From NCBI GenBank assembly GCA_963836075.1, contig CAWIIB010000001.1, forward strand, positions 640,001 to 704,000: a stretch of DNA of 64,000 nucleotides, in the 5' to 3' direction. How positions within the stretch are numbered: position 1 is the stretch's first letter; each line of letters starts with the position of its first letter. A model generated the notes under the pieces. That model searched no databases. It was given only the letters and a program-made list of their open reading frames with translations, and was not told the origin of the DNA. Below, piece by piece: positions 18,176-40,090 of the stretch. Source of the stretch: an uncultured Acidobacteriota bacterium. Lineage in GTDB: Bacteria > Acidobacteriota > JAQAZP01. The position numbers and the translations under genes are program-made.

Positions 18176-20479
18176 ATGACCCTCGAGCACTGTCGCGGAT
18201 TGGCCCGGTCGGGCCTCTCGCTGGGCCTGCTGTTCGGCCTGCTGGCCCTGTTCACCGTACCGGCATCCGCCGCCACGGTTCCGAACAACTTCACCGACAC
18301 CCAGGTGGTGGCCGATCTCGCCATGCCCACCGACTTCGCCTTCCTCCCCGACGGCCGCATTCTGGTCGTCGAGCAGTGGACGGCCAAAGTCCGCCTGATC
18401 GTCAATGGCGCCATCGGCGGAACCGACCCGCTGGTCACCGTACCCAACGTGAGGGACGACCACGGCGAGGCCGGCCTGATGTGCATCGAGGTGGACGCCG
18501 GCTGGCCCGCTCGGCCCTACATCTACGTCTATTACAACAACGCCTCGACGAACACCTGCTGTCTCTCGATGTACACCGTCACCGGCGACCTGAGCAACCC
18601 GAGCAGCGATAACCTGAACATCGCCCCGTCGAGCCGCTACGACATATTGACCGACATCCCCGACGACTTTCCCAACCAGAACGGCGGCACGGCGCGCTTC
18701 GGCAACGACGGCATGCTCTACCTCAGTCTCGGCGACGACCTGGACGAATGCGAGTGCCAGGAGACCAGTTCGCTCTACGGCGAGATCCTGCGCCTCGACA
18801 TGTCGGCCATGCCTGGCGCCGGTTCCGGTCCGCCGCCCAAAGCCGACATCACCCCCCCCGACAACCCGTTCAGCGGCGACGTCAACACCAACATGGTCTT
18901 CTGCTACGGTCTGCGCAACCCCTACCGCTTCGAGATCGACCCGGTCACCGGCAACCTCATCATCGGCGACGTGGGCGAGGCGACCAACGAAGAGATGAAC
19001 ATCGCCTCCGGCGGCGAGAACTTTGGCTGGCCCTTCCGCGAAGGGGAGATGATTCGCGAACCGGCGGGCTGCGACGAGCCGGGCGGCCCCGGCGGGACGG
19101 ACTACGACCAGCCGATCTTCTATTACAACCGTGTCGGCTTCAGCGCCTCGGTCATCAGCTGCGGAATGTACCGCCCGGTGGACTACCCGAACGACGACAG
19201 CCTCCCCCCCGATTACAACGGTGACATCTTCTTCGCCGAATACTACCAGGGCTACCTGGTCCGGCTGAAATACAACGGCAGCGGCTGGGAGGTGGCCGAC
19301 CCGGTGGCCGGCCAGCCCAGCGCCGACCACTGGGCCACAGACATTTCCGAGGTTTCCCGCATGCAGGTCGGTCCCGACGGCGCCCTGTGGTATCTCGACC
19401 AGTTCGATCCGGCCTGGCCCGATCTAGGTGCCCTGCGCCGCATCAGCTATGACGGTCCGTCCCAGCCCGAGCCGCGGATCATCACCGGCCCCGGACCGGC
19501 CGAGGCCAACGACTGCCTGGTGCGGGTTTTCAACCCCGAGAGCACCGGCGTGGCCCTGGCCGAGTGGGCCGCCTATGGCGTGCCCAAGTACGGGGTCAAT
19601 GTGGCCACCGGCGACCTGGACAATGACGGTTTGGTGGAAGTGCTCACCGGCGCCGGGCCCGGCGCTGTGTTCGGGCCCCACGTCCGCGGGTTCGACCTGA
19701 CGGGCATTCCGGTCTCCGGGGTGAGCTTCTTTGCCTACGGCACCCTCAAGTTCGGCGTCAACGTCGCCGCCGGCGACCTGGACAACGACGGCTACGACGA
19801 GATCCTCACCGGCGCCGGCCCCGGCGCGGTGTTCGGGCCCCACGTGCGCGGCTGGAACGTTGACGGCGGGACCGCCACATCAATCCAGGGAATCAGCTAT
19901 TTCGCCTACGGCACACCCAAGTGGGGCGTCAACGTCGCCGCCGGCGATATCGACGGTGACGGCTACGACGAGATCATCTCCGGTGCCGGACCGGGCGCGG
20001 TGTACGGGCCCCACGTGCGCGGCTGGAATTTTGACGGCGGCAGTTCCACCTCGTCCATTCCCGGGGTGAGCTTCTTTGCCTACGGCACCCTGAAGTTTGG
20101 GGTCAACGTGGCCTGCGGCGACTTCGACGGCGACGGCATCGACGAGATCATCACCGGCGCCGGGCCGGGCGTGGTCTTCGGCTCCCACGTGCGGGGCTGG
20201 AACTACGACGGCGGGCCGCTGACCTCGGTGGGCGGGGTCAGTTTCTTCGCCTACACCGGGTCGCTCTACGGGGTGCGGACGGCACTGCTGGACCTGGACG
20301 GCGACGGCTACGACGAGTTGCTCACCGTCCCCGGGCCCGACCCCGACTGGCCGGCCCAGGTCAAGGCCTGGAACATCGACGGCGGATCGGCCACGGCTAT
20401 CAGCAGCATCGATTTCGACGGGTACGCCGACGGTGCGTTGATGCACGGTGGTTCGGTGGCCGGCGGTATCGGCTACTAG
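18176..20479 (+). CDS. Secreted PQQ-dependent sugar dehydrogenase-like (GSDH) protein with C-terminal FG-GAP-like propeller, copy 1
   Basis: Signal peptide; FLPDGRILV, GMLYLSLGD, GEILRLD, PPDNPF, YGLRNPYRF, IGDVG, GGENFGWP; from ~19478 five GD(L/I/F)DxDG-type repeats. Confidence 0.85.
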   Translation: MTLEHCRGLARSGLSLGLLFGLLALFTVPASAATVPNNFTDTQVVADLAMPTDFAFLPDGRILVVEQWTAKVRLIVNGAIGGTDPLVTVPNVRDDHGEAGLMCIEVDAGWPARPYIYVYYNNASTNTCCLSMYTVTGDLSNPSSDNLNIAPSSRYDILTDIPDDFPNQNGGTARFGNDGMLYLSLGDDLDECECQETSSLYGEILRLDMSAMPGAGSGPPPKADITPPDNPFSGDVNTNMVFCYGLRNPYRFEIDPVTGNLIIGDVGEATNEEMNIASGGENFGWPFREGEMIREPAGCDEPGGPGGTDYDQPIFYYNRVGFSASVISCGMYRPVDYPNDDSLPPDYNGDIFFAEYYQGYLVRLKYNGSGWEVADPVAGQPSADHWATDISEVSRMQVGPDGALWYLDQFDPAWPDLGALRRISYDGPSQPEPRIITGPGPAEANDCLVRVFNPESTGVALAEWAAYGVPKYGVNVATGDLDNDGLVEVLTGAGPGAVFGPHVRGFDLTGIPVSGVSFFAYGTLKFGVNVAAGDLDNDGYDEILTGAGPGAVFGPHVRGWNVDGGTATSIQGISYFAYGTPKWGVNVAAGDIDGDGYDEIISGAGPGAVYGPHVRGWNFDGGSSTSSIPGVSFFAYGTLKFGVNVACGDFDGDGIDEIITGAGPGVVFGSHVRGWNYDGGPLTSVGGVSFFAYTGSLYGVRTALLDLDGDGYDELLTVPGPDPDWPAQVKAWNIDGGSATAISSIDFDGYADGALMHGGSVAGGIGY

Positions 20480-20497
20480 AACAGAGTCTGATTTCCG

Positions 20498-20541
20498 AAA
20501 GGCCCGGGGGGTTGCCATTGGCAACCTTCCGGGCTTTTTTT
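20498..20541 (+). terminator. Rho-independent terminator
   Basis: GGCCCGGGGGGTTGCC-ATT-GGCAACCTTCCGGGCT followed by a T run, just after the stop at 20479. Confidence 0.8.
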
Positions 20542-20679
20542 CTTTATCAGGTTAAAACTGCAGCGTTTCCGTGATATAGTCTACCTTTACTGTAGACTTT
20601 TGGCGGCAGCACTGTGTTCCTCAAACCCGCTTCCCGGGTCGCCGCCGCCATGCCACAACATCATGGGAGTGAAGATCCA

Positions 20680-22986
20680 ATGACCACCGACAGAACCCGC
20701 AAGCCCGCTTCCGGGAGCCCTGTTCTCGCTCTCTGCGGCATCCTTCTTTTTTTCGCCGCCCTGCCGGCGGCAGCCGCAACGGTGCCCGACGATTTCGATG
20801 ACAGCCTGATCATCAACGGCCTGAGCCTGCCGGTGGGCTTCACCTTTCTCCCCGATGGCCGGATCGTGTTTATTGAACAGGTGACGGCCAACATCCGGCT
20901 GCTGGTCAACGGCGCCATCGGCTCCATCGACCCGCTGGTCACCGTCCCGTCGGTCTACACCAGCGGGAACGAAAGGGGCCTGCTGGGGATCGACGTGGAC
21001 CCCGACTGGCCCAGCCGGCCCTACATCTACATCTATTACAGCCACCAGGGAACCAACACCAACTACATCTCGATGTACACGGTCACCGGCGACCTGAGCG
21101 ACCCGAACAGCGGCAACCTGCAGATCTCCCCGTCCAGCCGCTATGACATCATCACCGATATTCCGGACAACGCCTTCAACCACAATGGCGGCACGGTCCG
21201 TTTCGGCACCGACGGCATGCTCTACGCCAGCATGGGGGACGACGCCACCCAGTGCACGGCCCAGGAAACCGACGACCTGCGGGGCGTTATCCTGCGCCTC
21301 GATATCTCGGCCATGCCGGGCACCGGCTCCGGGCCGCCGCCCAAGGCCGACATCACCCCCGCGGACAACCCCTTCTCCGGTGACCCCAACACCAACCTGG
21401 TCTTCTGCTACGGCCTGCGCAACCCGTTCCGCTTCAACGTGGACCGGGTCAGCGGCGACCTCTACATCGGCGACGTGGGCCTGGGAAATTACGAGGAGGT
21501 GGACCTGGCCACGGGCGGCGAGAACTTCGGCTGGCCCTTCCGCGAGGGCCCGATGATCCGCACCCCCAGCGGCTGCGACGAGCCCGGCGGCCCCGGGGGA
21601 ACCGACTACGACGACCCGATCCACTACTACGACCGCACGGGGTTCAGCGCCTCCATCATCAGCGCCACCTACTACCGCCCGGAGAGTTACCCCACGGACA
21701 GCAGTTTCCCCCCGGAGTACAACGGCGACTGCTTCTACGTGGAGTACTACCAGGGCTGGATGGTGCGCATCGAGAACAGCGGCAGCGGCTGGCAAAAGGC
21801 CGACCCGGTGGCCGGACAGCCCGACGACGACCACTGGGCCACCGGCCTGGTGGGCGCGGCCGATTTCCAGATAGGCCCTGACGGCGCCATCTACTATTGC
21901 ATTCAGTACGGCGATGGCGGAGCCGGCACCGGCGGCTCGTTACGCCGTATCGCCTACACCGGCACGGCCCAACCCCAGCCCCGCATCGTCACCGGCCCCG
22001 GACCGGCCGAGGCCAACGACTGCCTGGTGCGGGTCTTCGACCCAACGAGCACCGGGTCGTCGCTGAACCAGTGGCCGGCCTACGGCGTGCCCAAGTACGG
22101 GGTCAACGTGGCCACCGGTGACCTGGACAGCGACGGCCTTGTCGAAGTGCTCACCGGCGCCGGTCCCGGCGCGGTCTTCGGGCCCCACGTCCGCGGGTTC
22201 ACCCTCGACGGGACGCCGGTCGCCGGGGTCAACTTCCTGGCCTACGGCACCAACAAATACGGGGTCAACGTGGCCGCCGGCGACCTGGACAATGACGGCT
22301 ACGACGAGATCCTCACCGGCGCCGGCCCCGGCGCGGTCTTCGGGCCCCACGTGCGCGGCTGGAACGTGGACGGCGGATCGGCCAGTTCCATCTCGGGAAT
22401 CAACTACTTCGCCTACGGCACCCCCAAATGGGGCGTCAACGTCGCCGCCGGCGACATCGACGGCGACGGCTACGACGAGATCATCTCCGGCGCCGGGCCC
22501 GGCGCGGTGTACGGGCCCCACGTGCGCGGCTGGAACCATGACGGCGGGCCGTCCACCTCGTCGATCCCCGGGGTGAGCTTCTTTGCCTACGGCACCCTGA
22601 AGTTCGGGGTCAACGTGGCCTGCGGCGACTTCGACGGCGACGGCATCGACGAAATCGTCACCGGCGCCGGGCCGGGCGTGGTCTTCGGCTCCCACGTGCG
22701 GGGCTGGAACTACGACGGCGGGCCGCTGACCCCGGTGAGCGGTGTCAGCTTCTTCGCCTACACCGGTTCGCTCTACGGGGTGCATACGGCGCTGCTGGAC
22801 CTGGACGGCGACGGCTACGACGAACTGCTCACCGTCCCCGGGCCCGATCCCGGCTGGCCGGCCCAGGTCAAGGCCTGGAACATCGACGGCGGAACGGCCA
22901 CGGCCATCAGCGGTATCGATTTCGACGCCTACTCCGACAGTTCGCTGATGCACGGCGGCACCGTGGCCGGCGGTATCGGGTACTAG
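20680..22986 (+). CDS. Secreted PQQ-dependent sugar dehydrogenase-like (GSDH) protein with C-terminal FG-GAP-like propeller, copy 2
   Basis: Tandem paralog of 18176..20479; ERGLLG, NHNGG, YGLRNPFRF, GGENFGWP; same C-terminal repeats. Confidence 0.87.
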   Translation: MTTDRTRKPASGSPVLALCGILLFFAALPAAAATVPDDFDDSLIINGLSLPVGFTFLPDGRIVFIEQVTANIRLLVNGAIGSIDPLVTVPSVYTSGNERGLLGIDVDPDWPSRPYIYIYYSHQGTNTNYISMYTVTGDLSDPNSGNLQISPSSRYDIITDIPDNAFNHNGGTVRFGTDGMLYASMGDDATQCTAQETDDLRGVILRLDISAMPGTGSGPPPKADITPADNPFSGDPNTNLVFCYGLRNPFRFNVDRVSGDLYIGDVGLGNYEEVDLATGGENFGWPFREGPMIRTPSGCDEPGGPGGTDYDDPIHYYDRTGFSASIISATYYRPESYPTDSSFPPEYNGDCFYVEYYQGWMVRIENSGSGWQKADPVAGQPDDDHWATGLVGAADFQIGPDGAIYYCIQYGDGGAGTGGSLRRIAYTGTAQPQPRIVTGPGPAEANDCLVRVFDPTSTGSSLNQWPAYGVPKYGVNVATGDLDSDGLVEVLTGAGPGAVFGPHVRGFTLDGTPVAGVNFLAYGTNKYGVNVAAGDLDNDGYDEILTGAGPGAVFGPHVRGWNVDGGSASSISGINYFAYGTPKWGVNVAAGDIDGDGYDEIISGAGPGAVYGPHVRGWNHDGGPSTSSIPGVSFFAYGTLKFGVNVACGDFDGDGIDEIVTGAGPGVVFGSHVRGWNYDGGPLTPVSGVSFFAYTGSLYGVHTALLDLDGDGYDELLTVPGPDPGWPAQVKAWNIDGGTATAISGIDFDAYSDSSLMHGGTVAGGIGY

Positions 22987-23012
22987 CCCCTGCCCCGTCG
23001 CAGACTGCTTGT

Positions 23013-23061
23013 AAAAAACAAAGGCCCGGATGACGTGATGTCATCCGGGCCTTTGTTTTTT
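23013..23061. terminator. Bidirectional terminator (22-bp perfect inverted repeat)
   Basis: AAAAAACAAAGGCCCGGATGAC-GTGAT-GTCATCCGGGCCTTTGTTTTTT between convergent genes. Confidence 0.88.
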
Positions 23062-23098
23062 GACCCGGGAGTTAATTGGGCTTAAAGATTAACCCAGG

Positions 23099-23695
23099 TC
23101 ATCTGCCGACACTCTGTCCCACTGGCACCCCCACCTTCACTTTCTCCAGGAAAAGCCGGTGCACGGGGCTCCCCTCGCTGAGCTCCGGATGGAAACTTCC
23201 CGCCATCACCCCGCCCGATGAGACCAGCACCGGCTCGCCGTCGTACTCGGCCAGCACCTTGACCCCGGGGCCCATACCGACGATCCGCGGCGCACGGATG
23301 AAGACCATCTCCAGCGGTTCGCCGCCGCACAACCGTCCCTGACCGACAAAGCTCTCCACCTGCCGGCCGTAGGAGTTGCGTTCGACGATGATGTCGATCA
23401 GCCCCAGGGACGTCTGGGCCGGCGAGCGGACCTCGGCGGCCAGCAGGATCAGCCCGGCGCAGGTGCCGAAGACGGTGCCGCCACGCCGCACCATTGCGGC
23501 CAGCGGTTCGGCAAAACCGTACTCGTCGATCAGCTTGAGCAGGGTGGTGCTCTCGCCGCCGGGAATGATCAGACCGTCCAGCTCGTCCAGCTCCCGGGGC
23601 CAGCGGATCACCTCCGCTGAAACCCCCAGCTCAGCCAGTTTTTTCACGTGGGCCGCAAAGTCGCCCTGCAGGCCCAGCACACCGATACCGTTCAT
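23099..23695 (-). CDS. pdxT: Pyridoxal 5'-phosphate synthase glutaminase subunit
   Basis: GVLGLQGDF, IIPGGESTT, FGTCAGLI, RNSYGRQVESF, FIRAP, SFHPEL; TAATG overlap with pdxS. Confidence 0.95.
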   Translation of the reverse strand: MNGIGVLGLQGDFAAHVKKLAELGVSAEVIRWPRELDELDGLIIPGGESTTLLKLIDEYGFAEPLAAMVRRGGTVFGTCAGLILLAAEVRSPAQTSLGLIDIIVERNSYGRQVESFVGQGRLCGGEPLEMVFIRAPRIVGMGPGVKVLAEYDGEPVLVSSGGVMAGSFHPELSEGSPVHRLFLEKVKVGVPVGQSVGR

Positions 23696-24582
23696 TACCA
23701 TCCCCTGTTCTGCAGCAGCTCCTCCTCCTTGAGCTGCTTGACGTCGATGCCGCGCATCGGCTGGCCCAACCCCTCGGAGACCTGGGCCAGCACCGCCGGG
23801 TCCTGGTAGTGGGTGGCGGCCTTGACGATGGCCCGGGCGCGGCTGGCCGGGTCTTCCGACTTGAAGATGCCCGAACCGACGAAGATGGCCTGGGCCCCCA
23901 GCTGCATCACCAGCGAGGCGTCGGCCGGAGTGGAGATGCCGCCGGCGGAGAAGTTGGGCACCGGCAGTTCGCCCTTCTCGGCCACCAGGCGCACCATCTC
24001 GTAGGGAGCGCCCAGCTCCTTGGCCTTGCTCATCAGCTGCTCCGGGGTAAGGATGGTCAGCTCGCGGATGCCGTTCATGATCTGCCGCATGTGCCGCACC
24101 GCCTCGACGATGTCGCCGGAGCCGGCCTCGCCCTTGGTCCGCATCATCGCCGCGCCCTCGGCGATGCGCCTGAGCGCCTCGCCCAGGTTCCGCGCGCCGC
24201 AGACAAAGGGCACCTTGAAGGCGAACTTGTCCACGTGGTGTGCCTCGTCGGCCGGGGTGAGCACCTCGCTCTCGTCGATGAAGTCGACGCCCAGAGCTTC
24301 GAGGATCTGCGCCTCGGCAAAGTGGCCGATGCGGCACTTGGCCATCACCGGGATGGAGACCGTCTCCATGATCTCCTTGATGATCGTCGGGTCGGACATG
24401 CGGGCCACGCCGCCGTCACGGCGGATGTCGGAGGGCACACGCTCCAGGGCCATCACCGCCACCGCGCCGGCATCCTCGGCGATCCGGGCCTGTTCGGCGT
24501 TGGTCACGTCCATGATCACGCCGCCCTTGAGCATCTCGGCCAGTCCGGTCTTCAGCCTCAGGGTTCCCTTTTCCTCGCTCAT
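23695..24582 (-). CDS. pdxS: Pyridoxal 5'-phosphate synthase lyase subunit
   Basis: [54 protein letters not shown]-like motif, C-terminal RGW. Confidence 0.97.
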
Positions 24583-24609
24583 CGTCCGCTCCTTTCCTCT
24601 GCGTATGTT

Positions 24610-26123
24610 TCAGATCCAGACGTCTTTGGTTTTCCGTTGTTCAGCCGGCTCGGGCCGCCGGCGGAGGTTTTTCCTGATGATCCGGCCCAGGGTGGCGATA
24701 CCCTCGGCGATGCGCCGCTCCGACTCGCGGATAAAGGTCAGGCGGAAGGCATTCTCGCCCCCGCGGTCGGGGTGGAAGAGCACCCCGGGCGAGAACCGCA
24801 CCCCGGCGTCCCGGCTTTCCTGGTGAATGCGCAACACGTCGGTGCCCTCGGGCAGGGTGACCCAGACCGACATGCCGCCCCGCGGCCGGGTCCAGTCAAC
24901 GCGTCGGGGAAAGTGGCTTTCCAGGGCTTTCAGCAGGGTCTCCAGCCGCTTGCCGTTGACCAGCTGCATTTTTTCAAGGTGGCGGTCGAGGTGCCCCTCG
25001 CGGCAGAACTCCAGCATGGCCTGCTGCAGGATCATCGGGGTGCCCAGGTCGGTGTAGCCCCTGATCTCGCTGACCTTCTCCCGCACCGCATCGGGCAGCA
25101 CCATCCAGCCCAGACGGATACCGGGGAAGAGCACCTTGGAGAAGGTGCCCAGCAGGATCACCTCTTCCCCGCCCTCCATCCCGCGCAGCGGCGCCGGCTC
25201 TTCTCCGTCATACATCATGCCGGCGTTGAAGTCGTCCTCCACCACCGGCACCCGCGCCTCCCGCGACCAGCGCAGCAGTTCCTGCCGCCGCTTCTGCGGC
25301 AGGGTGGCTCCGGTGGGGTTCTGGTGATTCGACATCACGTAGAGGAACTTGGCCCGCTCGGCCCCCGAGACGGCGGGCAACGCTGCGGTGTCCAATCCGT
25401 GGTGATCCACCGGCAGCGGAAGGATCGTGGCGTCGAACAGCTGGAAGGAACGGTAGGCGTTGGGATAGCCGGGAAGCCCCATCAACACCAGGTCGTCCGG
25501 CTCCAGCAGCAGCTTGCCCACCAGGTCCAGCCCCTGCTGGATCCCGCTGACGATGACGATGTTCTCCGGCCGCACCGTTATCCCCCGCTCCCCGCAACGC
25601 TGGGCAAGATACTGGCGCAGCGGCGGGTAGCCCTCGGCCGGTCCGTAGGAGAGCAAATCCCCCTGGTCCCGGTTCCAGACCCGCTGCAGGCAGTCCTGAA
25701 AGTCCTGCGCGGGGTAGAACTCCGGCGAGGGGATGGCGCTCTCGAAGTTGATCGCCCCCTCGAACCGCTCCCCCATGCCCAGTTCGTCGCCGTCGGTGCC
25801 GGCATGGCGGGTGGCCCGCCGGGCCAGCAGCCGCTCCCAGGGCAGTTGGAAGGCCAGCGATTCTCCGGCACCCGTGGTTTCGCGGGCCGGGCCCACAAAG
25901 GTGCCCGCGCCCACCCGGCTGCGCACCAGGCCCAGCTTCTGCAACTCGGCATAGGCCGCGGCCACCGTGTTGCGGTTCAGGCCCAGTTCATCGGCCAGCT
26001 GCCGCGATGGGGGAAGACGGAACCCTTCGGCCAGTTTCCGCTCTCCACGGCCTCGCTGATCCGGGCCACCAGCTGCTCCCGGATGCTCACCGGCGAGGAT
26101 TGGTCTATATCCAGCTGAAGCAC
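24610..26123 (-). CDS. MocR/GabR-family PLP-dependent transcriptional regulator (PdxR-like); apparent frameshift near 26037
   Basis: wHTH RLPPSRQLADELGLNRNTVAAAY plus aminotransferase-like domain (HQNPTG, EDDF, GTFSKVLFPGIRLGW). The natural N-terminus (V)LQLDIDQSSPVSIREQLVARISEAVESG from GTG 26123 is one base out of frame. Confidence 0.88.
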
Positions 26124-26141
26124 TTCTCTCTCCACAAGATG

Positions 26142-26219
26142 CAATCAAGCCAATCGATAGGACAATCCGCACAATTATACCATTAACACGCGAGACAAGC
26201 AACAGACAATCAAGACAAT
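26142..26219 (-). promoter_or_regulatory. Sigma70 promoter of the MocR-pdxS-pdxT operon with flanking direct-repeat operator candidates
   Basis: Minus strand TTGCTT(26202-26197)-N17-TATAAT(26179-26174) with extended -10 TG; three CAAT-N5-CAAT pairs at 26142, 26163 and 26207. Confidence 0.65.
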
Positions 26220-26363
26220 TCAGTGGGAATCGACATTTCCATTGGAAAACAGCCTTGTCGTTTCATGTACAATGAATTAACTTGATATGACAGCCAGGCC
26301 GGGAACGAAGCGTCACCCGTCCCCGAAGCCAATTTTCATCATTTGAATCCGGGGAGAACGTCG

Positions 26364-29300
26364 ATGCGGAACAGTGTCGCCGCGAAGCGCCGTACATTCC
26401 TGCCGGGCCGGGTGCTGTTCCTGGCCCTGGCGCTGGTCTTCTCTTCTGCCGGCAATGCCGCGGCCGCCACCATCATCGTTGACTGGACCGGCGCCGGGGA
26501 CTACCTCACCGTCCAGGAGGGTCTCGAGGCAGCAGTGAATGGCGACACCGTCCGGGTCCGGTCCGGCACCTATACGCTGCCCGTCGGAACCCATCTCGAT
26601 TTCGACGGCAAGGCCGTGCGGCTCACCTCGGTAAGCGGGCCCGAGAGCACCATCATCGAGGGGCCGGAACCCTACGACTTCTGTGTTCGCTTCGAATCGG
26701 GCGAAGCGCCCTTCACCAGGCTGAACGGCTTCACCCTCGACGGGATCCTGGTCCGGATCCACGGCCAGTGCATCACCGACCATTTCGAGACAACATTTTT
26801 CTGCGGAAGGGCATTGAATGCGGGAGCGGGTCCCCGGTGATCACCGGCAACCGGTTTCCAGACCAGTGAGGACGACTATGCCGTCTACCTGGGTTCGGCT
26901 TCGAGCGACGGTCTCCGGGCGGTCATCGAAAACAACCATTTCAGCGGCGACGGAAGTGGTCAAGGAATCTACTACTCCAGCAGATGATCCCGATACCGGT
27001 TCCATCATCCGCGGCAATGTGATCACCGGATTCGACCACCGGCGTATACAGCGCCTGCAACCGGAAGATACCTCGATACGGCTCCGCTGATCGAGAACAA
27101 CCTGATCTATGGCAATGAACTGGGTATCAACACCCGACCGAGCCATCCTGGCCGGGAACACCATCGTCTTCAACCGAGAACCCAGCTGGATACGCCGGCA
27201 TCCACGTCGCCAGCGGAAACGACGCCTGATCATGCGGGACTGCATCGTCTGGGGAAATCGATCCTTCTGGGACGCCCAGATCTACAACGACCTCTCATTC
27301 GGCATCGAAGTATCCCACTCGCTGATCGAGGGCGGCCGCGACGGCATCAAGCGGCACGGATCCGGTCACCTGGGGCACTGGCAACCTGGATGCCGATCCG
27401 CTCTTTCTCAATGGGCCTGCCGGGCCCTGCTACCTGAGCCAGGTCGCCGCCGGACAGGCCGCCGACAGCCCCTGCCTGGATGCCGGCAGCCGACCGGCAA
27501 CCACCGGCGAGGGGACAACCCGCACCGACCAGGCCGACGACACCGGCACCCTCGATATCGGTTACCACCAGCAGGAGATCCCCGGCCTCTTCATCTGCCA
27601 CGACCTGCCCGAGAACCACGTCCATGCCATGGAGGGCGGCGAGCAATCCCGTGGTGCCGCGCTGGGCATCTGGCAGGGCGGCGAGGGGATTCTGCTCTGG
27701 ACCGTGTCCGATGATGCCGGCTGGCTCGAATCTCTCACCCGCCTCCGGCACGTCCACGGTGAAATCGACGAGGTGCAGGTCCTGGTGGACACCGCCGGCC
27801 TGGCCCTCGGCGACCACCATGCCGTGATCACCATCGACGCCCCGGCGGCGGCCAACGGCCCGGTGAGCATCCCGCTGACCCTGACCATCAACCGCACCTG
27901 GGTGGTGGACCAGGCTGGCGGCGGTGAACTTCACCACCATCCAGGAGGGTCTCGACGCTGCCGTCGACTATGACGTGGTCCTGGTGCGGCCCGGCACATA
28001 CACCGGCGACGGAAACCGCGACCTCGACTTCGGCGGCAAGGAGCTGACACTGATCTCGGAGGGGGACCGGCGCTGACCATCATCGACGCCGAGGGCGAGA
28101 TTCGACGAGCACCACCGCTGTTTCAACTTCCAGGGCCAGGAGGGGCCCGGCGCCATGGTCCAGGGGTTCACCATCCGAGGGCGGGTTGGCCGAGGAGGGC
28201 GGCGGGATCCACTGCGGCTACCGTCTGCTCCCCCACGATCCGCGGGAAACATCATCATCCGGGAACAGCGCGGAACAGGCAACGGCGGGGGGATCTACCT
28301 CGCCTCCTACAGCCTGTCGCCGATCGAGGACAATGTGATCGCCGAAAACCAGGTCGTCGGCGGCGCCACCAGCTACTACGGCGGTGGCGAGGCATCTGCG
28401 CCCCTCTGCCCGCCGATGATCCGCGGCAACCGGGTCACCGGCAACAGTTCCGTCAGGCTATGGCGGCGGCATCTACTGCTACCTCCCGCCGGAGCGGCCT
28501 GCGAGAACAACCTCATCGCCGGCAACAGCGCGGCATCGCGGCGGTGGCGGTCTCTTTTTCAGGAACCAGGCCAACGCGGAGATCCGCAACTGCACCATCG
28601 TCGGCAACCACGCCGCCGAGGGCGGCGGATTCTACGCCCCCAACTGCAACGACGCCCACCACCCTCACCAACTGCATTCTCTGGGGCAACCAGGCCCTGG
28701 GCGAGGGCGACCAGGGCTTCACCTGGCCGCCGATGACCGTCCGGTACAGCGACGTCCAGGGGGGCGAGGCCGGCATCGACGGGGGGACGGCCCGGTGACC
28801 TGGGGTGACGGGAACTCGATGCCGACCCGCAGTTCGCCACCCTCTGCGATTACGGCAATTTCCTCTCCCAGACGGCCGCCGGCCAGCCCGCGGAGAGCCC
28901 CTGCGTGGATGCCGGCGATCCCTGCTGCCCCGCCCATGGACCGCACCACCCGCACCGATTTCGTCACTGACGCCAGCTTCGGTGGACATGGGTTTCCACT
29001 ACCAGGCCCTCACCGAACCCCGGCTGCTGCTCTCCCCTGATGAGCTCGACTTCCGGGCCATCGCCGGGGACGAAGACCCGGTACCGCAGGTGATCGCAGC
29101 TGGCCAACGGCGGGCCGGTCCGATGGGATGGACCGCCTCATCCAGCGCGGGCTGGCTGCTGCTGGACACCACATCCGGCAGTTGCCAGAGCGGTGAAACC
29201 GTTGCCATCACGGCCTCGACCATTATCACCGGCCTTGATCGCGGCGTTTACGAGGCCGAGCATCCTCATCGAGGCGCCCGGTGCGTCCGCTGCGCCGCGG

Positions 29301-31590
29301 ATCATCCCGGTATCCCTCTCTCTCGGCGGCACCTTCACCGTGGTCCCCGGAGGCGGCGGTGATTTCGACACCCTCCGGGATGCGCTGGACAACGCCGTCC
29401 ACGGCGACACCATCCTGGTGGCCGCGGGCACATACAGCGGCCCCGAGAACAGGGACCTCGACTTCGGTGGCATCGACGTGTCACTGGTCTCGATCGACGG
29501 TCCGGAGAAGACGATCATCGACTGCCAGGGCGACGGGCGGGCGTTCCACTTCCAGGGCGGCGAGAGCCGGGCAGCCACGGTGTCCGGCTTCACCATCACC
29601 GACGGTTCGGCCAAGAACGGCGGTGGGGCGATGCTCTTCGCGGTGCCGCCTCCCCGACGGTCACCAACTGCCGCTTCGTGGCCAACGCGGCCCAGATATC
29701 CGGGGGCGCGGCGTTTAGTGCCGGCACGATTCCTCCCCGCTCTTCCTCCGCAAAACCTTCCGCGAAAACCAGGCGGTGGAACGGGGCGGCGGAATGAACG
29801 TCATCGCATTTCAGTTCCGCCGAGCTTGTGGAAAACACGTTCGAGAGCAATGCACCGTGGAATATGGCGGTGGGATCTATGTCAGTTCCGACACGCCGGT
29901 CGTCATCCGCGGCAACAGCTTCGAAGGGAACAGCTGCACCGACCAGTGGAACAGCAGTCTTCGGGGGCGGGGTCTGCGTCGTCTGGCAGACCCTGGAGGA
30001 CAACATCTTCACCGGCAACATGGGCCCACCACGGCGGCGGGCTCTGGGGCTACCACTGCGAGTTGATCAACAACCTCTTCACCGGCAACCACGCGCTGCA
30101 AAAGGGCGGCGGGGCCTTCTTCGAGACGGCGGGGTGGTCCTGTCCACCACCATCGCCGGGAACACCGCCGGCACCCGGGGCGGCGGCCTCTTCCTCGCCC
30201 AGACCGGGACCTGCCGGATCAGCAACAGCATCCTCTGGGGCAACCAGTCGCTTTACGACCATGAGATCTGTCTCGGTTTTCCGGAGGACACCACGCTGAC
30301 CTTCGATTATTCCGACGTCGAGACGACCGGCGACTGGATCAGCGACGACGCCGATTTGACCTGGGGCAAGGGGAACCTGGAGACGGACCCGCTCTTTGTG
30401 CAGGGCCAGCTGGGCAGCCACCTGCTGAGCCAGGCGGCCGCCGGGCAAAGCGTCACCAGCCCCTGCGTAAACGCCGGTAACCCGATGAGCGAATGATTGA
30501 CGGCACCACCCGCACCGACGGTGTTCCTGACGCCGGCATCCTCGACATCGGCTTTCACCACCCGGCCGGCACACCGCCGCCACCATACAGCGCGCTGATC
30601 ACCGGCCCCGGGCCGGCACCGGCAACCCGCCGCTGGTGCGGGTCTTCCCGGCGGAACAGGACGCCTCCTACGATTATGAATTCCCGGCATACGGCGCCAC
30701 CGAATACGGCGTCAACGTGGCCGCCGGTGATGTGAGCGGAGAATGGTATCGATCCATCCTCACCGGCGCCGGCCCGGGCGAGATCTACGGTCCCCACGTG
30801 CGGGGCTTCCGGGTGGACGGCACTCCCCTGCCCGGCCTCAGCTTCATGGCCTACGGCACCAACAAGTATGGGGTCGAACGTGGCTGCCGGCGACTTGGAC
30901 AACGATGGATACGACGAGATCGTCACCGGCGCCGGACCGGGGGCGGTGTTCGGGCCTCACGTGCGCGGCTGGGACTACGACGGCACGCCGGGGGTTGCCC
31001 CGGTGCCCGGCGTATCCTACTTCGCCTACGGCACGCTCAAGTGGGGGGTCAATGTCGCCTGCGGCGACATCGACGGTGACGGCTATGACGAGATCGTCAC
31101 CGGCGCCGGCCCGGGTGCCGTGTTCGGTCCCCACGTGCGGGGCTGGAACGTGGACGGCGGAGCGGCGGCGGCCATACCGGCGGTGAGTTTCATGGCCTAC
31201 GGAACGAACCGGTTCGGTGTCCGCGTCACCTGCGGCGACGTGGACGGCGACGGCATTGACGAGATCGTCACCGGCCCCGGCCCCGGCACGATCTTCGGCA
31301 CCCATATCCGCGGCTGGAACTACGACGGCGGAGTGCTGGCTGAAATCCCGGGGATCAACTTCTTTGCCTGGGCCCACAGCCTGGCCAGCTACGGGGCCAA
31401 CGTCTGGGCCGGCACCGACCTCGACGGCGACGGCCGGGACGAACTGGTGGTGGGCTGCGGGCCCGATCCCGATGTGGGCACGCCGGTCAAGGCCTACCGC
31501 TACGACGGGAAGCAGGTCTCCCAGTGGTTCTCGCTGGAGGCGTTCGAGGGCATGACCCACGGCACCACCGTGGCGGCGGGGCGGTTCTGA
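26364..31590 (+). CDS. Giant secreted protein: three beta-helix units with BACON-like spacers plus C-terminal FG-GAP-like module; many frameshifts (assembly error or pseudogene)
   Basis: Signal peptide; three starts of type 'GDxxTxQxxLxxAVxGDTxxVxxGTY'; GGG-rich PbH1-like repeats; three 'LSQxAAGQ..SPCxxAG..TTRTD..D(I/M)G(Y/F)H' motifs; terminal ORF 30868..31590 carries the propeller repeats. Confidence 0.7.
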
Positions 31591-31593
31591 AGT

Positions 31594-32280
31594 TCAACGG
31601 CCCTGCTTCTGCAGCCGGACCAGCCTCCGGGAATAGAGGATCAGGCCGACCCAGAGCAGCAGGATCACCCCGCTGGCCGGCAGGGTGGCGTTGTAGGCCA
31701 GCAGGAAGAAGTCGTAGAGGCCGTGGGCGGCCATGGCCAGACCCAGGGTCGCCAGCTGCCAGAGCAGACGGGCGGTACGGGTGCGGCTGACCAGCAGGGC
31801 GTGGGCCGTGCCAAAACCCCAGATGGCGGCGAAGAGGGTGTGGGTCAGCGGCGAAGTGACGGCCCGGGCCAACTGGTGGGGCCAGGGCAGCAGTTGGGAG
31901 TAAAGCAGGTTCTCCACCGTGGCAAAGCCGATGGCCACGGCGCCGGCATAGACCATGCCGTCGATGCGCTCGTCGAAATGGCGCCAGCGGAAGACCAGGG
32001 TCCGGGCGGCCAGGAACTTGGCCCCCTCCTCCACCGGGCCCACCAGGAGCAGACAGTAGATCGCTATATCGCCGATACCCTCCCCCGGCCACAGCGGAAA
32101 GCCGAGCAGTCCGGCCAGCCAGTAAAGGCCCAGGGCCAGAACGGCCGAACCGCACCCGCAGACCCAGGCCAGCAGCAGCAGGCGCCGCGGTTCCGGTTTC
32201 AGCGAATCCTTGTGGTCGAAGTAGAGCATCCAGAGCAGGGCCCCGGCGGCGATGAACCCCACTGTGCGCACCAGCAGCAT
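31594..32280 (-). CDS. PrsW-family intramembrane glutamic protease
   Basis: EP motif, GPVEEGAK, DGMVYAG..GFATVEN, HTLFAAIWG, HGLYD; hydrophobic. Confidence 0.88.
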   Translation of the reverse strand: MLLVRTVGFIAAGALLWMLYFDHKDSLKPEPRRLLLLAWVCGCGSAVLALGLYWLAGLLGFPLWPGEGIGDIAIYCLLLVGPVEEGAKFLAARTLVFRWRHFDERIDGMVYAGAVAIGFATVENLLYSQLLPWPHQLARAVTSPLTHTLFAAIWGFGTAHALLVSRTRTARLLWQLATLGLAMAAHGLYDFFLLAYNATLPASGVILLLWVGLILYSRRLVRLQKQGR

Positions 32281-32696
32281 CTATCCCTCCCGTTTCTTCA
32301 GTCACCAACCGCTTCGGACGCCGCGCCATCTCCCATGAGATGTACCTTTATCGCAAACGCCCGATGTTCAGGAAAAGCTGTTTTTTCATGGAGGTAACAA
32401 TTCTCCCCCTAAAGCTATTCCGGGTTTCAGCCGATAAAAAAAGTGGAGACGTCGAATAATTACGGGGATTGTGAAAATTCGACGAATTCGCCCCCTCCGC
32501 ACTTACCTCCGCGGAGGGGGCTTCCCACCTTTCTCGTTCCCGGCCTTTCTTGACTACATCGCACTGGCCCACATACAATTGCGCTGGTCTGCAACCCTTC
32601 GACGCCGTGAGCCAACCGGGCCGCTCACTGCGCCCGCAGGCCGGAGATCCGTCAATAACTGGCCCGGGGGCGGCAAGGGCAGGACACTCAAAGGCA

Positions 32697-34040: not shown

Positions 34041-34047
34041 GCTGGGA

Positions 34048-35013: not shown

Positions 35014-35243
35014 GATTCCCCGTTTTCCCCCTCTTCCCGGCTGTGGTTGACAGCGCCGGCCGATAATCGTCAAACAGTCAGTTTTCCGTATCCCAATAAA
35101 CCGTACACCGATCCGGAGGCCCGTGTCCAGTATTCCATATCGGCCGCGGGTCCACCGATTGACTGATTCCCCGGTCTCCTGTACTATTTTTTTGTGCCGC
35201 AGAGCGACTGATTCATCAACAACCGCGCCAGGGAGGTGGAAAT

Positions 35244-35930
35244 ATGCTCCAGCCAGCCGATCTCTTCGATTTCCAGGGCTGGAAATATGCCGATCTGTTT
35301 GACGATGTGGCTTACGTCTGGGAGGTCCTTCCCCGGATCAGGGAGTACATCCTCTCGCGACTTGAACCGGGCATCGAAGGCACCGTGATGGACGGCGCGT
35401 TTCTCGAAGGGAACGACATCTTCATCGGCCCGGAGACGGTGGTGGAACCGGGAGCGTTGATCCGCGGACCGGCGATCATCGGCGCACATTGTGAGATCCG
35501 CCAGGGGGCCTACATCCGGGGCCAGGCGCTGGTGGGCGACCATTGCGTGGTGGGCCACACCACCGAGATGAAGAATTCGGTGATGCTGGACGGGGCCAAG
35601 GCGGGCCACTTCGCCTATATCGGCGACAGCATCCTCGGCAGGGAGGTGAACCTCGGCGCGGGGACCAAGCTGGCCAACCTGAAGATCAACAACTCGCAGG
35701 TCACCATTCGCCACGAGGGCGAGGTGTACCAGACCGGGCTGCGCAAGTTCGGGGCGATCCTGGGGGACAGTGTCGAGCTGGGCTGCAACAGCGTCTCCTC
35801 ACCCGGGACCATCGTCGGCCCGCAATCGCTGGTCTACCCCAACAGTTCGGTGGCCGGGGTGGTCCCCGCGCGGTCCATCGTCAAGTTGAAACAGAACCAG
35901 GAAATCCATCCCCGGCGGCTCCTCGACTGA
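35244..35930 (+). CDS. Hexapeptide-repeat (left-handed beta-helix) acyltransferase, GlmU C-terminal-like
   Basis: GPETVVEPGALIRGPAIIG, HFAYIGDSILG, NLGAGTKLANL, RKFGAILGD. Confidence 0.85.
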   Translation: MLQPADLFDFQGWKYADLFDDVAYVWEVLPRIREYILSRLEPGIEGTVMDGAFLEGNDIFIGPETVVEPGALIRGPAIIGAHCEIRQGAYIRGQALVGDHCVVGHTTEMKNSVMLDGAKAGHFAYIGDSILGREVNLGAGTKLANLKINNSQVTIRHEGEVYQTGLRKFGAILGDSVELGCNSVSSPGTIVGPQSLVYPNSSVAGVVPARSIVKLKQNQEIHPRRLLD

Positions 35931-35972
35931 ACGGTGGGCGGAGGCGCGGATTACGGCAGGAGGGCCGGCATC

Positions 35973-36695
35973 GTGAGCAGACTGGACGCCCTGTTCTTCG
36001 ACATCGACGACACCCTCTTCTCCACCTCGGATTTTGCCGCCTCGGCGCGGCGGGCCAGCGTCCGGGCGATGATCGCGGCCGGCCTGCAGGCCGATGAGCA
36101 GCAATGCTTCAAGGAACTGTATGAGGTGATCCGCGAGTTCGGGCCCAACTTCCCGCGGCACTTCGAGAAGCTGCTGCTGCGCTACCCCGAGAAGAACCTC
36201 AGCGGCGTCAACCCGGCCATTATCAGCGCCTCCGGCGTGGTGGCCTACCACAAGACCAAGAACAGCGAACTGCGCCCCTACCCCGACGTGGTGGAAGCGT
36301 TCCAGGTGCTGAAGAGCCGCAATCTGCGCATCGGCATTATAACCGCCGGCCTGGCCGCCAAGCAGGCGGAGAAACTGGTGCGCCTCGACCTGCTGAAATA
36401 CATCGACCCCCACGCCATCTTCATCACCGACCAGCTGGGCATCGGCAAGCCGAACCCCAAGCTCTACCTCACCGCCTGCCGGTCCCTGGACCTCGAGACG
36501 TCCCGCTGCATGTATGTGGGAGACCGCCCGGTGGACGACATCGACCCCGCGGGGGAGGTGGGCATGGTGACGGTGCTCAACCGGCGGGTCAGCAAACCGA
36601 TCAGCCAGTCGGGCAAGCGGCTGCCCGACTACCAGATCTACAACTTCCACGATCTGCTGGATATTCTGCGTTCCGACTTCGGGCTGGATGACTAA
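35973..36695 (+). CDS. HAD-superfamily hydrolase
   Basis: FFDIDDTL, GIITAG, GKPNP, YVGDRPVDDI. Confidence 0.88.
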   Translation: MSRLDALFFDIDDTLFSTSDFAASARRASVRAMIAAGLQADEQQCFKELYEVIREFGPNFPRHFEKLLLRYPEKNLSGVNPAIISASGVVAYHKTKNSELRPYPDVVEAFQVLKSRNLRIGIITAGLAAKQAEKLVRLDLLKYIDPHAIFITDQLGIGKPNPKLYLTACRSLDLETSRCMYVGDRPVDDIDPAGEVGMVTVLNRRVSKPISQSGKRLPDYQIYNFHDLLDILRSDFGLDD

Positions 36696-38167
36696 GGTCT
36701 GCCGCTGGACGCCGGCGTGCTGCCGGCCAGCACGGCGCAGATGCTGTCCTGCAGCCGCTTGGCCTCGCTGTTGCCCAGCTTGTTCCCGTTCATCAGAATC
36801 GAGAAGGCCACCGGGCCCGCGTCCGGGTTGCCGGCCACGCCGCTGAGCGAGCTGACCCCGTTGATGAACCCGCTCTTGGCCCTGACCCGGCGCAGCGCGC
36901 TGCCGCCGGTCATCCGTTTCTTCAGCGTGCCGTCCGCCCCGGCCACCGGCAGGGAGGAAAAGAACTCGGGTCCGATCTGGAAGTCATTCCAGGCGTGGCT
37001 GACCACTGCGGTGAGCAGCCGGGCGGTGACCCGGTTGTCCGGAGACAGCCCGGACGCGTCATCCAGCACCACCCCGGCCATCGGCAGCTGCTGATACCTG
37101 AGGTAGGAGTCCACCGCCAGCAACCCATTGGCGGTGGTCCCTGGTGCGCCAAGCATCTCGGCGCCGATGGTCTTGAGGATCATCTCTGCCGAGAAGTTGT
37201 TGGAGTATTTGTTCATCTCCACCAGCAGCCGGCCCAGCGACCGCGACTGGAAGGAGTAGATCTCCTCCGCGCCCTCCGGGACGGTTCCCAGGGAGGGCGG
37301 TCGGCCGAAGGAAATCCCCACCTCTTCGGCCACTTCCACGAACGAAGAGAGGAAATAACCGGCGGGGTCCTCAACGCTGCGCAGGGTCACCGACGTCGGG
37401 TGGTCAAGGGGGATCGCCCCGCCCACCACCACCTCGTTGCGGCCGTCCCGGTAGCGGCGGTCCACGGTAAGGGTCATCTTGCCCTTGCGGGTCACCGCGC
37501 GGTTCAGCACGGTGAAGAACCGGCTGAAGGGGTCGACGACCACCACCGGCGGCTGTCCGGAGCGCTCGGCCGGCCGGACGATCACGTTCACCGAGTTGAA
37601 GTTGCAGGAGAGGGCACCCACCGGCGCGGCAAAAGCGCGGTGGGCATAACTCGACTTCCACCGCCGGTTCCGTCCCTGGCGGTCGAAAAATGTGTCGTCC
37701 CCCACCAGGCCGCCGCGCACTTCGCGGATGCCGAGATTGCGCAACTGACGGGCCATGACCCAGAGGTTCTCGCAGACCAGGTCGGGCGCTCCCCTGCCCT
37801 GCACATGGAGATCTCCCTCCAGCACGCCGTTGCGGACCGGTCCGCCGGCGAAAAACGGTGTCTCGTAGACATAGTCGGGCTTGAGCGCCCAGAGCGCCGC
37901 GGCAGCGGTGACCAGCTTCATGTTCGACGCCGGGACCAACGAGTCATTGGCCGAGCGGGAGTAGAGCACCCGGCCGTCCACCAGGGAGACGGCGTGGAGG
38001 GCCACCTTCATCGAGGCCGGCCGGCGGCCGGCCAGCAGCTTGTCCAGCGCGGCCTCCATGGAACGGGATGGCGCCGTTTCCTTTGCCGCCAGCGGCAGCA
38101 GCATCATGAGCGCGGCCAGGGCCAGCGCCCCGCCGTAGCGCAGCAGTCGAGCGTAATTCCGGTTCAT
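36692..38167 (-). CDS. dacB: D-alanyl-D-alanine carboxypeptidase/endopeptidase (PBP4, S13)
   Basis: Signal peptide; PASNMK (SxxK), SNN, AKSG, DASGLS, SLPVAGADGTL. Confidence 0.93.
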   Translation of the reverse strand: MNRNYARLLRYGGALALAALMMLLPLAAKETAPSRSMEAALDKLLAGRRPASMKVALHAVSLVDGRVLYSRSANDSLVPASNMKLVTAAAALWALKPDYVYETPFFAGGPVRNGVLEGDLHVQGRGAPDLVCENLWVMARQLRNLGIREVRGGLVGDDTFFDRQGRNRRWKSSYAHRAFAAPVGALSCNFNSVNVIVRPAERSGQPPVVVVDPFSRFFTVLNRAVTRKGKMTLTVDRRYRDGRNEVVVGGAIPLDHPTSVTLRSVEDPAGYFLSSFVEVAEEVGISFGRPPSLGTVPEGAEEIYSFQSRSLGRLLVEMNKYSNNFSAEMILKTIGAEMLGAPGTTANGLLAVDSYLRYQQLPMAGVVLDDASGLSPDNRVTARLLTAVVSHAWNDFQIGPEFFSSLPVAGADGTLKKRMTGGSALRRVRAKSGFINGVSSLSGVAGNPDAGPVAFSILMNGNKLGNSEAKRLQDSICAVLAGSTPASSGRP

Positions 38168-38284
38168 TCCAATCCGCCTCGGTAGAGCTGTGGTGCGGCG
38201 GCCTTCCGCACAAGTCTGCCTGTGTTGGGGTTTATGCTTGTCTTTCAGCTTACCACAGGGCTCCACCATCGATCAAAAGCGTGC

Positions 38285-38325
38285 AAAAAGAAAAGGCGGG
38301 ACAACGGTTACCCCGTTGCCCCGCC
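38285..38325 (-). terminator. Rho-independent terminator downstream of the selenoprotein gene
   Basis: Minus strand GGCGGGGCAACGG-GGTAA-CCGTTGTCCCGCC-TTTTCTTTTT. Confidence 0.75.
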
Positions 38326-38350
38326 AATAGCATCTACTCAAACTGCCGGA

Positions 38351-40090
38351 TCAGAACTGGCCCACCGCCAGATTCACACCGTGAGACACGTCCACCTGGG
38401 GACGATCGAAAGCGGTGAACTCGATGATCTGTTCGAGTTCGCTGCCGCCGTCGTAGTTGTAGCCCAGGACCCAGGCGTCGTAGTCCGCGCCGGGGCCGGC
38501 ACCAACCAGAATCTCGTCGATCCCGTCGCCATCGATGTCGCCGCAGGCCACGTTGCAGCCCCACTCGGTGTAATCGAAGGCAAAGAAGTTGATCGCACCG
38601 ATGGAGGTGGCGGCACCACCGTCAATGTTCCAGGCCCGCACGTGGGGGCCGAACACCGCGCCGGGGCCAGCGCCGGTGACGATCTCGGCAAAGCCGTCGC
38701 CGTCGATGTCGCCGCAGGCCACGTTCACACCGAATTTGTTCGAGCCGTAGGCCAGGAAGCTGACCCCGGGCGCCGGGGAGATACTGCTGTTGTCGTAGTT
38801 CCAGCCGCGCACGTGGGGTCCGTACACCGCGCCGGGTCCGGCGCCGGTGACGATCTCATCGAAGCCGTCTCCGTCGAAGTCACCGGCAGCCACGTTGACC
38901 CCCCACTTGGGCGTGCCGTAGGCGAAATAGCTCACCGCGCTGATCGAGGTTACCGTGCCGCTGCCGTCGTAGTTCCAGCCGCGCACGTGGGGACCGAACA
39001 CCGCACCGGGTCCGGCGCCGGTGATGATCTCGTCGTAGCCGTCACCATCCAGCTCTCCGGTGGCCACGTTGACCCCGTATTTCAGGGTGCCGTAGGCGAA
39101 GAAGTTCAGGCCGTCCAGCTGGTTACCGTCGTAGTCGAACCCACGTACCTGCGGGCCGAAAACCGCGCCGGGACCGGGACCGGTGAGAATGTCGTCGAAG
39201 GTGTCGCCATCGATATCGCCGGTGGCCACCGTGGTGCCGTAACGGTCGGGGCCGTAGGCCTGGACGGTCACATCGGCATACCAGCCGCCGTCAAGATGAT
39301 AGCCCACAGCCTGGTTGACGTTGTCCGGGCCCGGACCGGGTCCGGCGATGATCATCGTGCCCTTGCCGAGGAACTGAATGAACATGATCGCGTGGAGGTT
39401 GGCCTCGTTCCAGTCGCCGCCCACGGCCACCGAGCCGCTGACGTTCTGGATCTGGCCGGTTGATGTCGCGGTCAGCGTTTCCTGCCACACCGGGAAGGCC
39501 CGGGCCATGTGCGGCGAACGGTCGGCCGGTTCCTCGTAGACCACCACGTAGACCTGGCAGGGAGGCACACTGCCCAGGGCTTCGATGGTGCCGTTAACCG
39601 ATACCGTGCCGCCGGCAACGTTCATGTCCAGGGACATCTCCACCGGGCTGGCCTGGGTCAGGTGGTCCTGAACGATGGGCAGGTAGGCGTTGTACATCGA
39701 ACCGCTGGCCTGGCCGCCGACATACTGCCGGTGACCGTCAAACACCGCGGTGGGCGTGCCGCCCACGCTGTAATAGTTGTTCCGATCGCTGTGATGGTCA
39801 CATTCATAACCCGAGCCGTAATACATGAGGCAAACAAACTGATCGGGACCGTAATCCACCATCAGGTCTTCGAGCCCCCGCTCCGCGGAGGGACAGTACG
39901 CTCACCCATCTCGTGAGAAAAGCTCGGCCATCACCACACGGTTGCTGCCGTCGTTCGGCACCCCGTCCTTCACTGCCTGCAGAATCTCCTGGGTGTTCGC
40001 CGCCCAGACGGTGCCGGACATGGTGAACAGCAGAAGGGCGAGCGCACCGGCCACAGTGACCAGCCGTCGCACGTTTGTACGGGTCGACAT
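38351..40090 (-). CDS. Putative secreted selenoprotein: Omp28/thioredoxin-like domain (UxxC) plus FG-GAP-like propeller; Sec UGA at 39904-39902
   Basis: AGGAGG RBS before ATG 40090 and a signal peptide. ORFs 39902..40207 and 38351..39862 are in the same frame, separated only by TGA: VMAELFSRDG-TGA-AYCPSAERGLEDL. Downstream GTPT cis-Pro motif and WNEANLHAIMFIQ. Confidence 0.85.
39871..39904 (-). promoter_or_regulatory. Candidate bacterial SECIS element
   Basis: UGA GCGUACUGUC CCUCCGC-GGA-GCGGGGG CUCG: 7-bp stem with a G-starting apical loop 17 nt after the UGA. Confidence 0.6.

Follow-up and report, generated by a model that had tools for sequence, protein, structure and literature searches.

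A C-terminal FG-GAP-type propeller module on many exported proteins of an uncultured Acidobacteriota bacterium, a possible address domain

The module and its carriers in the window

We analysed a stretch of 64,000 nucleotides from an uncultured Acidobacteriota bacterium (GCA_963836075.1, contig CAWIIB010000001.1, positions 640,001 to 704,000; hereafter the window), in which two GSDH-like proteins, an Omp28-related protein and a broken beta-helix gene end in one and the same module of ~330 residues (Table 1). A sequence-only reading of the window had placed this cassette on four secreted proteins. This holds for the two GSDH proteins and the minus-strand protein; the beta-helix example, however, is not one open frame. 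So far the module has been annotated only as a generic 'FG-GAP repeat', and it is probably a common address or anchor domain that is not yet catalogued as such.

Table 1. Module-bearing features of the window (positions counted within the window)
Feature	Position	Strand	Basis and remarks
GSDH-like exported protein, 767 aa	18176..20479	+	translation; C-terminal module at 19478-20476
Tandem GSDH-like paralogue	20614..22986	+	module at 21985-22983; likely ATG start near 20650
Broken gene: signal peptide, three tandem right-handed beta-helix units, module	26364..31590	+	open reading frames, tblastn; module at ~30595-31590
Omp28-related exported protein	38351..40090	-	TGA read as selenocysteine; module at 38354-39358

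Both GSDH proteins are of the pyrroloquinoline quinone (PQQ) sugar dehydrogenase-like type, and Pfam finds GSDH (E 3.7e-35), FG-GAP and FG-GAP_3 on the first of them. The module of the second GSDH protein is 89% identical to that of the first, the module of the Omp28-related protein 61%, and the three copies align without shifts. These intact cassettes of ~333 aa start with I(I/V)(T/A)GPGP and finish with HG..(V/L)A.G..(Y/F) at the stop codon, and thus have the ends that the sequence-only reading had assigned to them, I(T/A)GPGP and HGxx(V/L)AxG..(F/Y)-stop. Its count of five repeats was correct for the full DxDGDG repeats, but a truncated sixth is also present. The four window copies score 59.9-73.1 bits with FG-GAP (PF01839, cut-off 22.1) and 53.5-63.5 bits with FG-GAP_3 (PF13517, cut-off 26.9); neither Pfam nor NCBIfam has a model dedicated to the module. 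The signal peptides claimed for all four proteins agree with their N-termini, which, judged by eye, have a basic n-region, a hydrophobic core and an A-x-A-like site.

An AlphaFold2 model of the module, made with a 40-sequence alignment, has a predicted local distance difference test score (pLDDT) of 93.9, a predicted template-modelling score (pTM) of 0.93 and 24 strands, thus six blades, as had been expected of a closed propeller. The ring is closed by one blade of the model to which both ends contribute, the ITGPGP..VRVF segment at the N-terminus and the HG.NVAAG strand at the C-terminus. In intact copies, five of the six blades have a GD(L/I/F)D(N/G)DG loop, and this loop shows high conservation among 110 aligned paralogues. 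The modules of these paralogues have a median identity of 57% (5th-95th percentile, 49-67%); blades 2-4 are the best conserved, mostly at >90% per column. From this model we regard the module as a predicted six-bladed propeller of the FG-GAP/VCBS type, ~330 residues long, with DxDGDG loops that are predicted to bind calcium.

One study assigns FG-GAP/integrin propellers to the VCBS supercluster, whose members typically recognise carbohydrates, and gives a median of six blades for highly repetitive VCBS-like propellers (PMC9218822). With FG-GAP/VCBS propellers and the integrin alpha head the module shares Pfam matches, DxDGDG loops in 1-2 hairpins and the FG and GAP motif loops. The integrin-type propeller has seven blades, whereas the module has six in the AlphaFold2 model, and its best geometric matches are six-bladed; unlike generic FG-GAP proteins, it is a self-contained cassette with fixed ends, C-terminal in position and present in >100 copies per genome. 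In the PDB, the best Foldseek match of the model is UmbA4 (9oee_A; E 4.5e-8, 18% identity, template-modelling (TM) score ~0.5), followed by integrin alpha heads, fungal PVL lectins (2bwm, E 8e-6), rhamnogalacturonan lyases and Tc-toxin propellers. The C-terminal domain of UmbA4 is reported to be a lectin propeller of six blades; it has conserved calcium-type loops and, on target cells, binds to teichuronic acid (PMC13274773).

Copy number, cargo and distribution

A profile hidden Markov model (HMM) of the module, built from the three intact window copies, covers model positions 1-333 on the first GSDH protein (669 bits) and scores 619 bits on the Omp28-related protein. The genome (6.23 Mb in 10 contigs) holds 53,244 six-frame open reading frames (ORFs), of which 157 match the HMM as whole copies or pieces. 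There are 112 full-length matches, and 100 of these finish at most six residues before the stop; 45 end in Phe. Whole copies score 216-670 bits and the pieces of frame-broken copies score lower, whereas the genome's remaining FG-GAP proteins, FG-GAP_3-rich cargos among them, stay below 30 bits. Because of this gap, the module is a discrete family and not merely a set of generic repeats; such scores are far outside what chance would give. In a check independent of the HMM, the last 130 residues of 7,811 ORFs (≥250 aa) were clustered, and 133 ORFs fell into the cluster of the propeller module. The fear of the sequence-only reading that the copies might be few was thus unfounded, and its description of the module as terminal, different from generic FG-GAP repeats and attached to varied cargo has been borne out.

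Indeed, the cargo parts of 115 carriers form 46 unrelated clusters, in which peptidases, esterases, glycan-active enzymes and redox enzymes predominate. Among 51 carrier representatives, Pfam identifies peptidases (C25 with propeptide, S8, M1, M14, M28, S41, C11 and S9-like), a Porphyromonas-type peptidyl-arginine deiminase, GDSL lipase, PNGase-F-like, BNR/sortilin and GH99-like families, and also Lcl_C, DUF362 and fn3; NCBIfam adds, above its cut-off, the catalytic domain of an extracellular polyhydroxyalkanoate (PHA) depolymerase. The largest cargo group consists of other propellers and right-handed beta-helices. Signal peptides were called with a strict home-made rule, for which other ORFs of ≥300 aa served as comparison: 78 of 133 propeller carriers pass it, against 575 of 2578 other ORFs, and with a looser rule the figures are 89 of 122 against 874 of 2106. 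The association with signal peptides that had been predicted is therefore present as an enrichment, and the cargo consists of extracellular-type enzymes. The junction between cargo and module is very short, and 86 junctions contain no conserved motif, linker or cleavage site ahead of the module, only a mild excess of proline.

The module is lineage-restricted, as had been proposed. It is found in all three species of the window's genus; among 38 other sampled genomes of the phylum, one has a single weak match at E≤1e-20. At E≤1e-30 it is present in 3 of 401 genomes from 227 genera, with the best five candidates per genome scored. A scan of species-representative genomes recovered full-length copies in three metagenome-assembled genomes (MAGs), labelled as Acidobacteriota or uncultured bacterium, and weaker matches in a Kerfeldbacteria MAG and others. 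The three MAGs have at least 156, at least 158 and at least 126 matches at E≤1e-20 (150 candidates scored in each), and 40 relatives of the more distant MAG gave no module match. In the fetched loci of other genomes, 37 of 81 ORF matches are full-length copies no more than 8 aa from the stop, and the remainder are incomplete, truncated at the end of a locus, diverged or generic. In the distant MAG the cargo is just as varied (S8, M23, multicopper oxidase, Kelch, PKD, beta-helix and BNR). Metagenome libraries contain at least 3386 proteins with the module at E≤1e-10 among the best 8000 candidates scored; metagenome protein clusters contain at least 2108 representatives with the module at E≤1e-30, of 1.84 billion, nearly all of them unnamed. 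In most of the best 150 metagenome matches the module lies at the protein end. As a separate observation, the Candidatus Kerfeldbacteria MAG (1.4 Mb, candidate phyla radiation; G402) has 11 module matches at E≤1e-20, and at its locus L060 one module stands at the C-terminus of an NHL-repeat protein.

The largest C-terminal cluster of the genome is a different domain of ~120 residues, which ends 175 ORFs (for example, G000:C1:1062004-1062966); within the span of the propeller finding in the window none was seen. The strict signal-peptide rule is passed by 119 of these 175 carriers. The two tags share cargo: 15 of 76 cargo clusters are mixed, among them GSDH (2 with the propeller and 1 with the ~120-residue tag), Omp28-like (2 and 2) and beta-helix proteins (33 and 38). 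Accessory domains may have linked the members of the two big mixed clusters; the small ones are clean.

A proposed address domain weighed against its alternatives

We propose, with about even confidence, that the module is a shared non-catalytic address domain, that is, a lectin-like retention or anchor domain on Sec-exported proteins of many kinds. The cargo would leave the cell by its N-terminal signal peptide, and the propeller would then hold it at a common extracellular place; the hold would come from lectin-like, multivalent binding of the near-identical blades to one repeating ligand, which would probably be a polysaccharide from the envelope or matrix of the producer itself. We infer binding, a ligand and retention at the cell surface along two lines: First, the mixed chemistry of the cargo, together with a uniform, terminal and sharply bounded module, exported carriers and the swapping of tags, argues for a common location function, and the very mixed cargo substrates point to a location tag rather than a substrate tag. 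Second, the size, the fold, the calcium loops and the nearest characterised relatives, lectin propellers and integrin heads, speak more for a domain of binding or retention than for a translocation signal, and the near-identical blades are suited to multivalent binding of a repeating polymer. The suggestion of the sequence-only reading, an anchoring, S-layer-binding or secretion tag, is in this way partly supported. In the full-text literature, with subscription journals outside its coverage, no publication was found that describes the module as a C-terminal tag.

Several observations weigh against an address domain of the lectin type. The Foldseek likeness to solved lectins is weak (TM 0.48-0.53, 15-18% identity), the geometry compared with VIA-align is equally close to six-bladed propellers of any family, such as Kelch and YWTD (Z ~21), and profile comparison matches only the calcium blades of integrin alpha(-V), at ~33 bits. 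The conserved loops double as the structural FG and GAP motifs, thus their conservation is no proof of a binding site. The lectin pockets of UmbA proteins are diversified, whereas the module is uniform. The signal-peptide rule is a crude heuristic that 55 of the 133 carriers fail; in many of the failing carriers the upstream part lies in another frame or behind an in-frame TGA, so that the N-terminus is broken or truncated. In the distant MAG STL-ACI10 (Acidobacteriota), a module (residues 62-368) stands in frame upstream of a Ser/Thr kinase domain (L036:2803-6933). What precedes the module seems to lie out of frame, and the arrangement is a fusion or else an artefact of the frame. The genes near the window carriers encode aminotransferases, a MocR-type regulator, PrsW, CCA/poly(A) polymerase, NAD synthase, PBP4 and NuoD, that is, housekeeping functions with no partner gene among them, and the analysis as a whole turned up no ligand, receptor, partner or machinery.

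Known systems resemble the module in part. The UmbA C-terminal lectin propellers of Streptomyces umbrella particles (PDB 9oee) are likewise six-bladed, have calcium-type loops and follow another domain at the C-terminus. UmbA lectins bind a cell-envelope glycopolymer (PMC13274773). UmbA lectins sit on one protein type, whereas the module sits on dozens of enzyme types. The proposed role has its closest parallels in SLH, CWB2 and choline-binding repeats and in dockerins, each of which is one repeat-built module common to many surface proteins, although none is related to the module in sequence or fold. Such repeat-built wall anchors and dockerins place one conserved module on many paralogous surface proteins with variable functional domains; they are mainly Gram-positive systems, and the host phylum Acidobacteriota is one that we take to be diderm.

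Considering that interchange of cargo between tags is what would be expected of address or anchor modules, we tentatively extend the proposal to a two-address system, which we regard as possible but doubtful. The propeller and the ~120-residue tag would sort ~300 exported proteins (133 + 175 ORFs) between two extracellular destinations, and the propeller would represent a surface-display anchor of a new class, one that has a receptor polymer or machine to itself. If true, a diderm lineage of Acidobacteriota would in effect have an enzyme coat comparable to a cellulosome, assembled by tag swapping among paralogous enzymes.

An alternative that we consider unlikely is a secretion or sorting signal, in which the folded propeller is recognised by an outer-membrane machine for export or attachment, as the C-terminal domain of the type IX secretion system (T9SS) is, and is possibly cleaved afterwards. 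The strictly C-terminal position fits such a signal, and the carriers include C25, PAD_porph, M14 and C11 families; in Bacteroidota, C25 gingipain-like proteins with propeptide, PAD_porph, M14 with CarboxypepD_reg and C11 are T9SS cargo. T9SS C-terminal domains (PF18962 / TIGR04183) are likewise a shared C-terminal module on many exported hydrolases, with overlapping cargo families. The genome also has two to three secretins and a PorU-like C25 protein (G000:C1:1027253-1029103, minus strand), which scores 201.7 bits against a cut-off of 420. At the same time, the T9SS domain is a small beta-sandwich of roughly 80-100 aa, whereas the module is a calcium-loop propeller of ~330 aa, several times larger than known sorting domains, and the 86 junctions lack a cleavage motif or linker. 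No SprA, GldM or Por_Secre_tail match was obtained in the genome, an absence that is unproven because 14 control genomes are equally silent, and Por_Secre_tail (PF18962) is unmatched in the four window proteins and the 51 carrier representatives. The ~120-residue tag is the better candidate for a sorting signal. The frame of the PorU-like protein has 937 aa, covers PorU model positions 106-733 and scores far above the other C25 proteins of the genome; we list it as a candidate for the enzyme that processes one or the other tag.

Quite unlikely in our view is a targeting lectin for foreign material, by which the propeller would bind an abundant environmental polymer or the surface of other cells and bring the enzymes to their substrate or prey in the manner of UmbA. 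UmbA4, the best solved match, does end in a six-bladed lectin propeller, and in the PHA-depolymerase carrier the module occupies the usual place of the substrate-binding domain in which extracellular PHA depolymerases, and many hydrolases, normally end. However, the substrates of the cargo are very heterogeneous (proteins, esters, glycans, redox), so that a single substrate ligand fits poorly, and the modules are uniform, not diversified.

We give still less weight to a dockerin-like docking module, a propeller that plugs enzymes onto a scaffold, an S-layer or an outer-membrane protein. One conserved module on ~130 different enzymes recalls cellulosomes, propellers commonly mediate protein-protein contacts, and a neighbouring cluster of FG-GAP proteins in the ESM Atlas has Dockerin_1 in 31% of its members, which is a lead only. 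Against this, no scaffold candidate turned up, no search having been aimed at cohesin-bearing proteins; the carriers (the four window proteins and 51 representatives) have no Pfam match to dockerin (Dockerin_1, PF00404) or cohesin, and no repeated receptor-like gene stands beside the carriers in the window. Finally, it is very improbable that the copies have no common role and only reflect the expansion, within one lineage, of a generic FG-GAP domain that serves various functions. Propellers of the FG-GAP/VCBS kind do occur widely and have often been amplified (PMC9218822), and part of the expansion is plain gene duplication (the tandem GSDH pair; 28 of 128 neighbouring carrier pairs lie <3 kb apart), but the fixed blade number, the sharp boundaries, the invariably terminal position and the high conservation across 46 cargo clusters and four genomes speak otherwise.

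The address-domain proposal bears on how such bacteria are annotated and understood, with roughly 130 exported enzymes per genome marked by one folded propeller in uncultured Acidobacteriota. Systems of secretion and anchoring, such as T9SS, sortases, exosortases and cellulosomes, have repeatedly been discovered through C-terminal modules that many proteins share. Recognition of the module as one family would improve the annotation of thousands of proteins and would define the set of exoenzymes, proteolytic for the most part, with which these bacteria of sediment and soil are equipped. A domain that folds well is also a handle for finding the bound surface polymer or receptor and a possible display scaffold, and cargo swapping with the second tag makes the placement of enzymes on the surface of non-Bacteroidota diderms directly testable.

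The broken beta-helix gene, the selenoprotein and the neighbourhood

The beta-helix gene at 26.3-31.6 kb changes frame at least nine times over three frames when it is followed by tblastn with paralogues, and it has an in-frame stop at 28796-28798. The breaks extend into its module: ITGPGP is in frame 1, blade 1 is in another frame (30624-30896), and the remainder returns to frame 1. At the DNA level, the first break looks as if one base had been lost from a G/C run, and the second as if one base had been gained; the calcium loop of blade 1 is degraded. The syntenic position of the sister genome holds an open frame of 751 aa. In the present assembly, the gene is thus a pseudogene or an error-ridden stretch. 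Three public sequencing runs of one study cover positions 26200-31700 with small shares (0.11, 0.05 and 0.00). The contig pieces from these runs are short, have 90-99% likeness to this interval and differ from the window by single-base indels at 20 places; they stem from relatives or paralogues and therefore leave a real pseudogene and an assembly error undistinguished. Across the genome, about one third of the carrier ORFs continue upstream in a different frame, and in about a dozen cases the module itself is divided between frames, which could reflect an assembly prone to indels in G/C runs or real gene decay.

The Omp28-related protein has an in-frame TGA at 39902-39904 on the minus strand, within the motif G-U-A-Y-C-P, a redox motif of the U-x-x-C type, and the genome has a selenocysteine tRNA gene (G000:C1:969768-969865). 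With the TGA read as selenocysteine, this fourth protein scores 53.1 bits with NCBIfam Omp28_seleno (NF045500; cut-off 200), and as the score is below the cut-off, it is a relative of that family and not a member. In a simple fold calculation, the 65-nt stretch that starts at the TGA does not fold better than shuffled sequences do (z 0.55), a result that speaks neither for nor against a selenocysteine insertion sequence (SECIS) element. Omp28-related paralogues elsewhere in the genome also have an in-frame TGA just before (A/G)YCP, at G000:C9:1999854-2001407 and C9:3141581-3144034; at least three Omp28-related TGA paralogues have the propeller and two have the ~120-residue tag. Among the neighbouring genes of the window, the MocR-type regulator, with GntR and aminotransferase domains, lies at 24613-26202 on the minus strand, beneath a long and probably spurious ORF at 23569-26118 on the plus strand.

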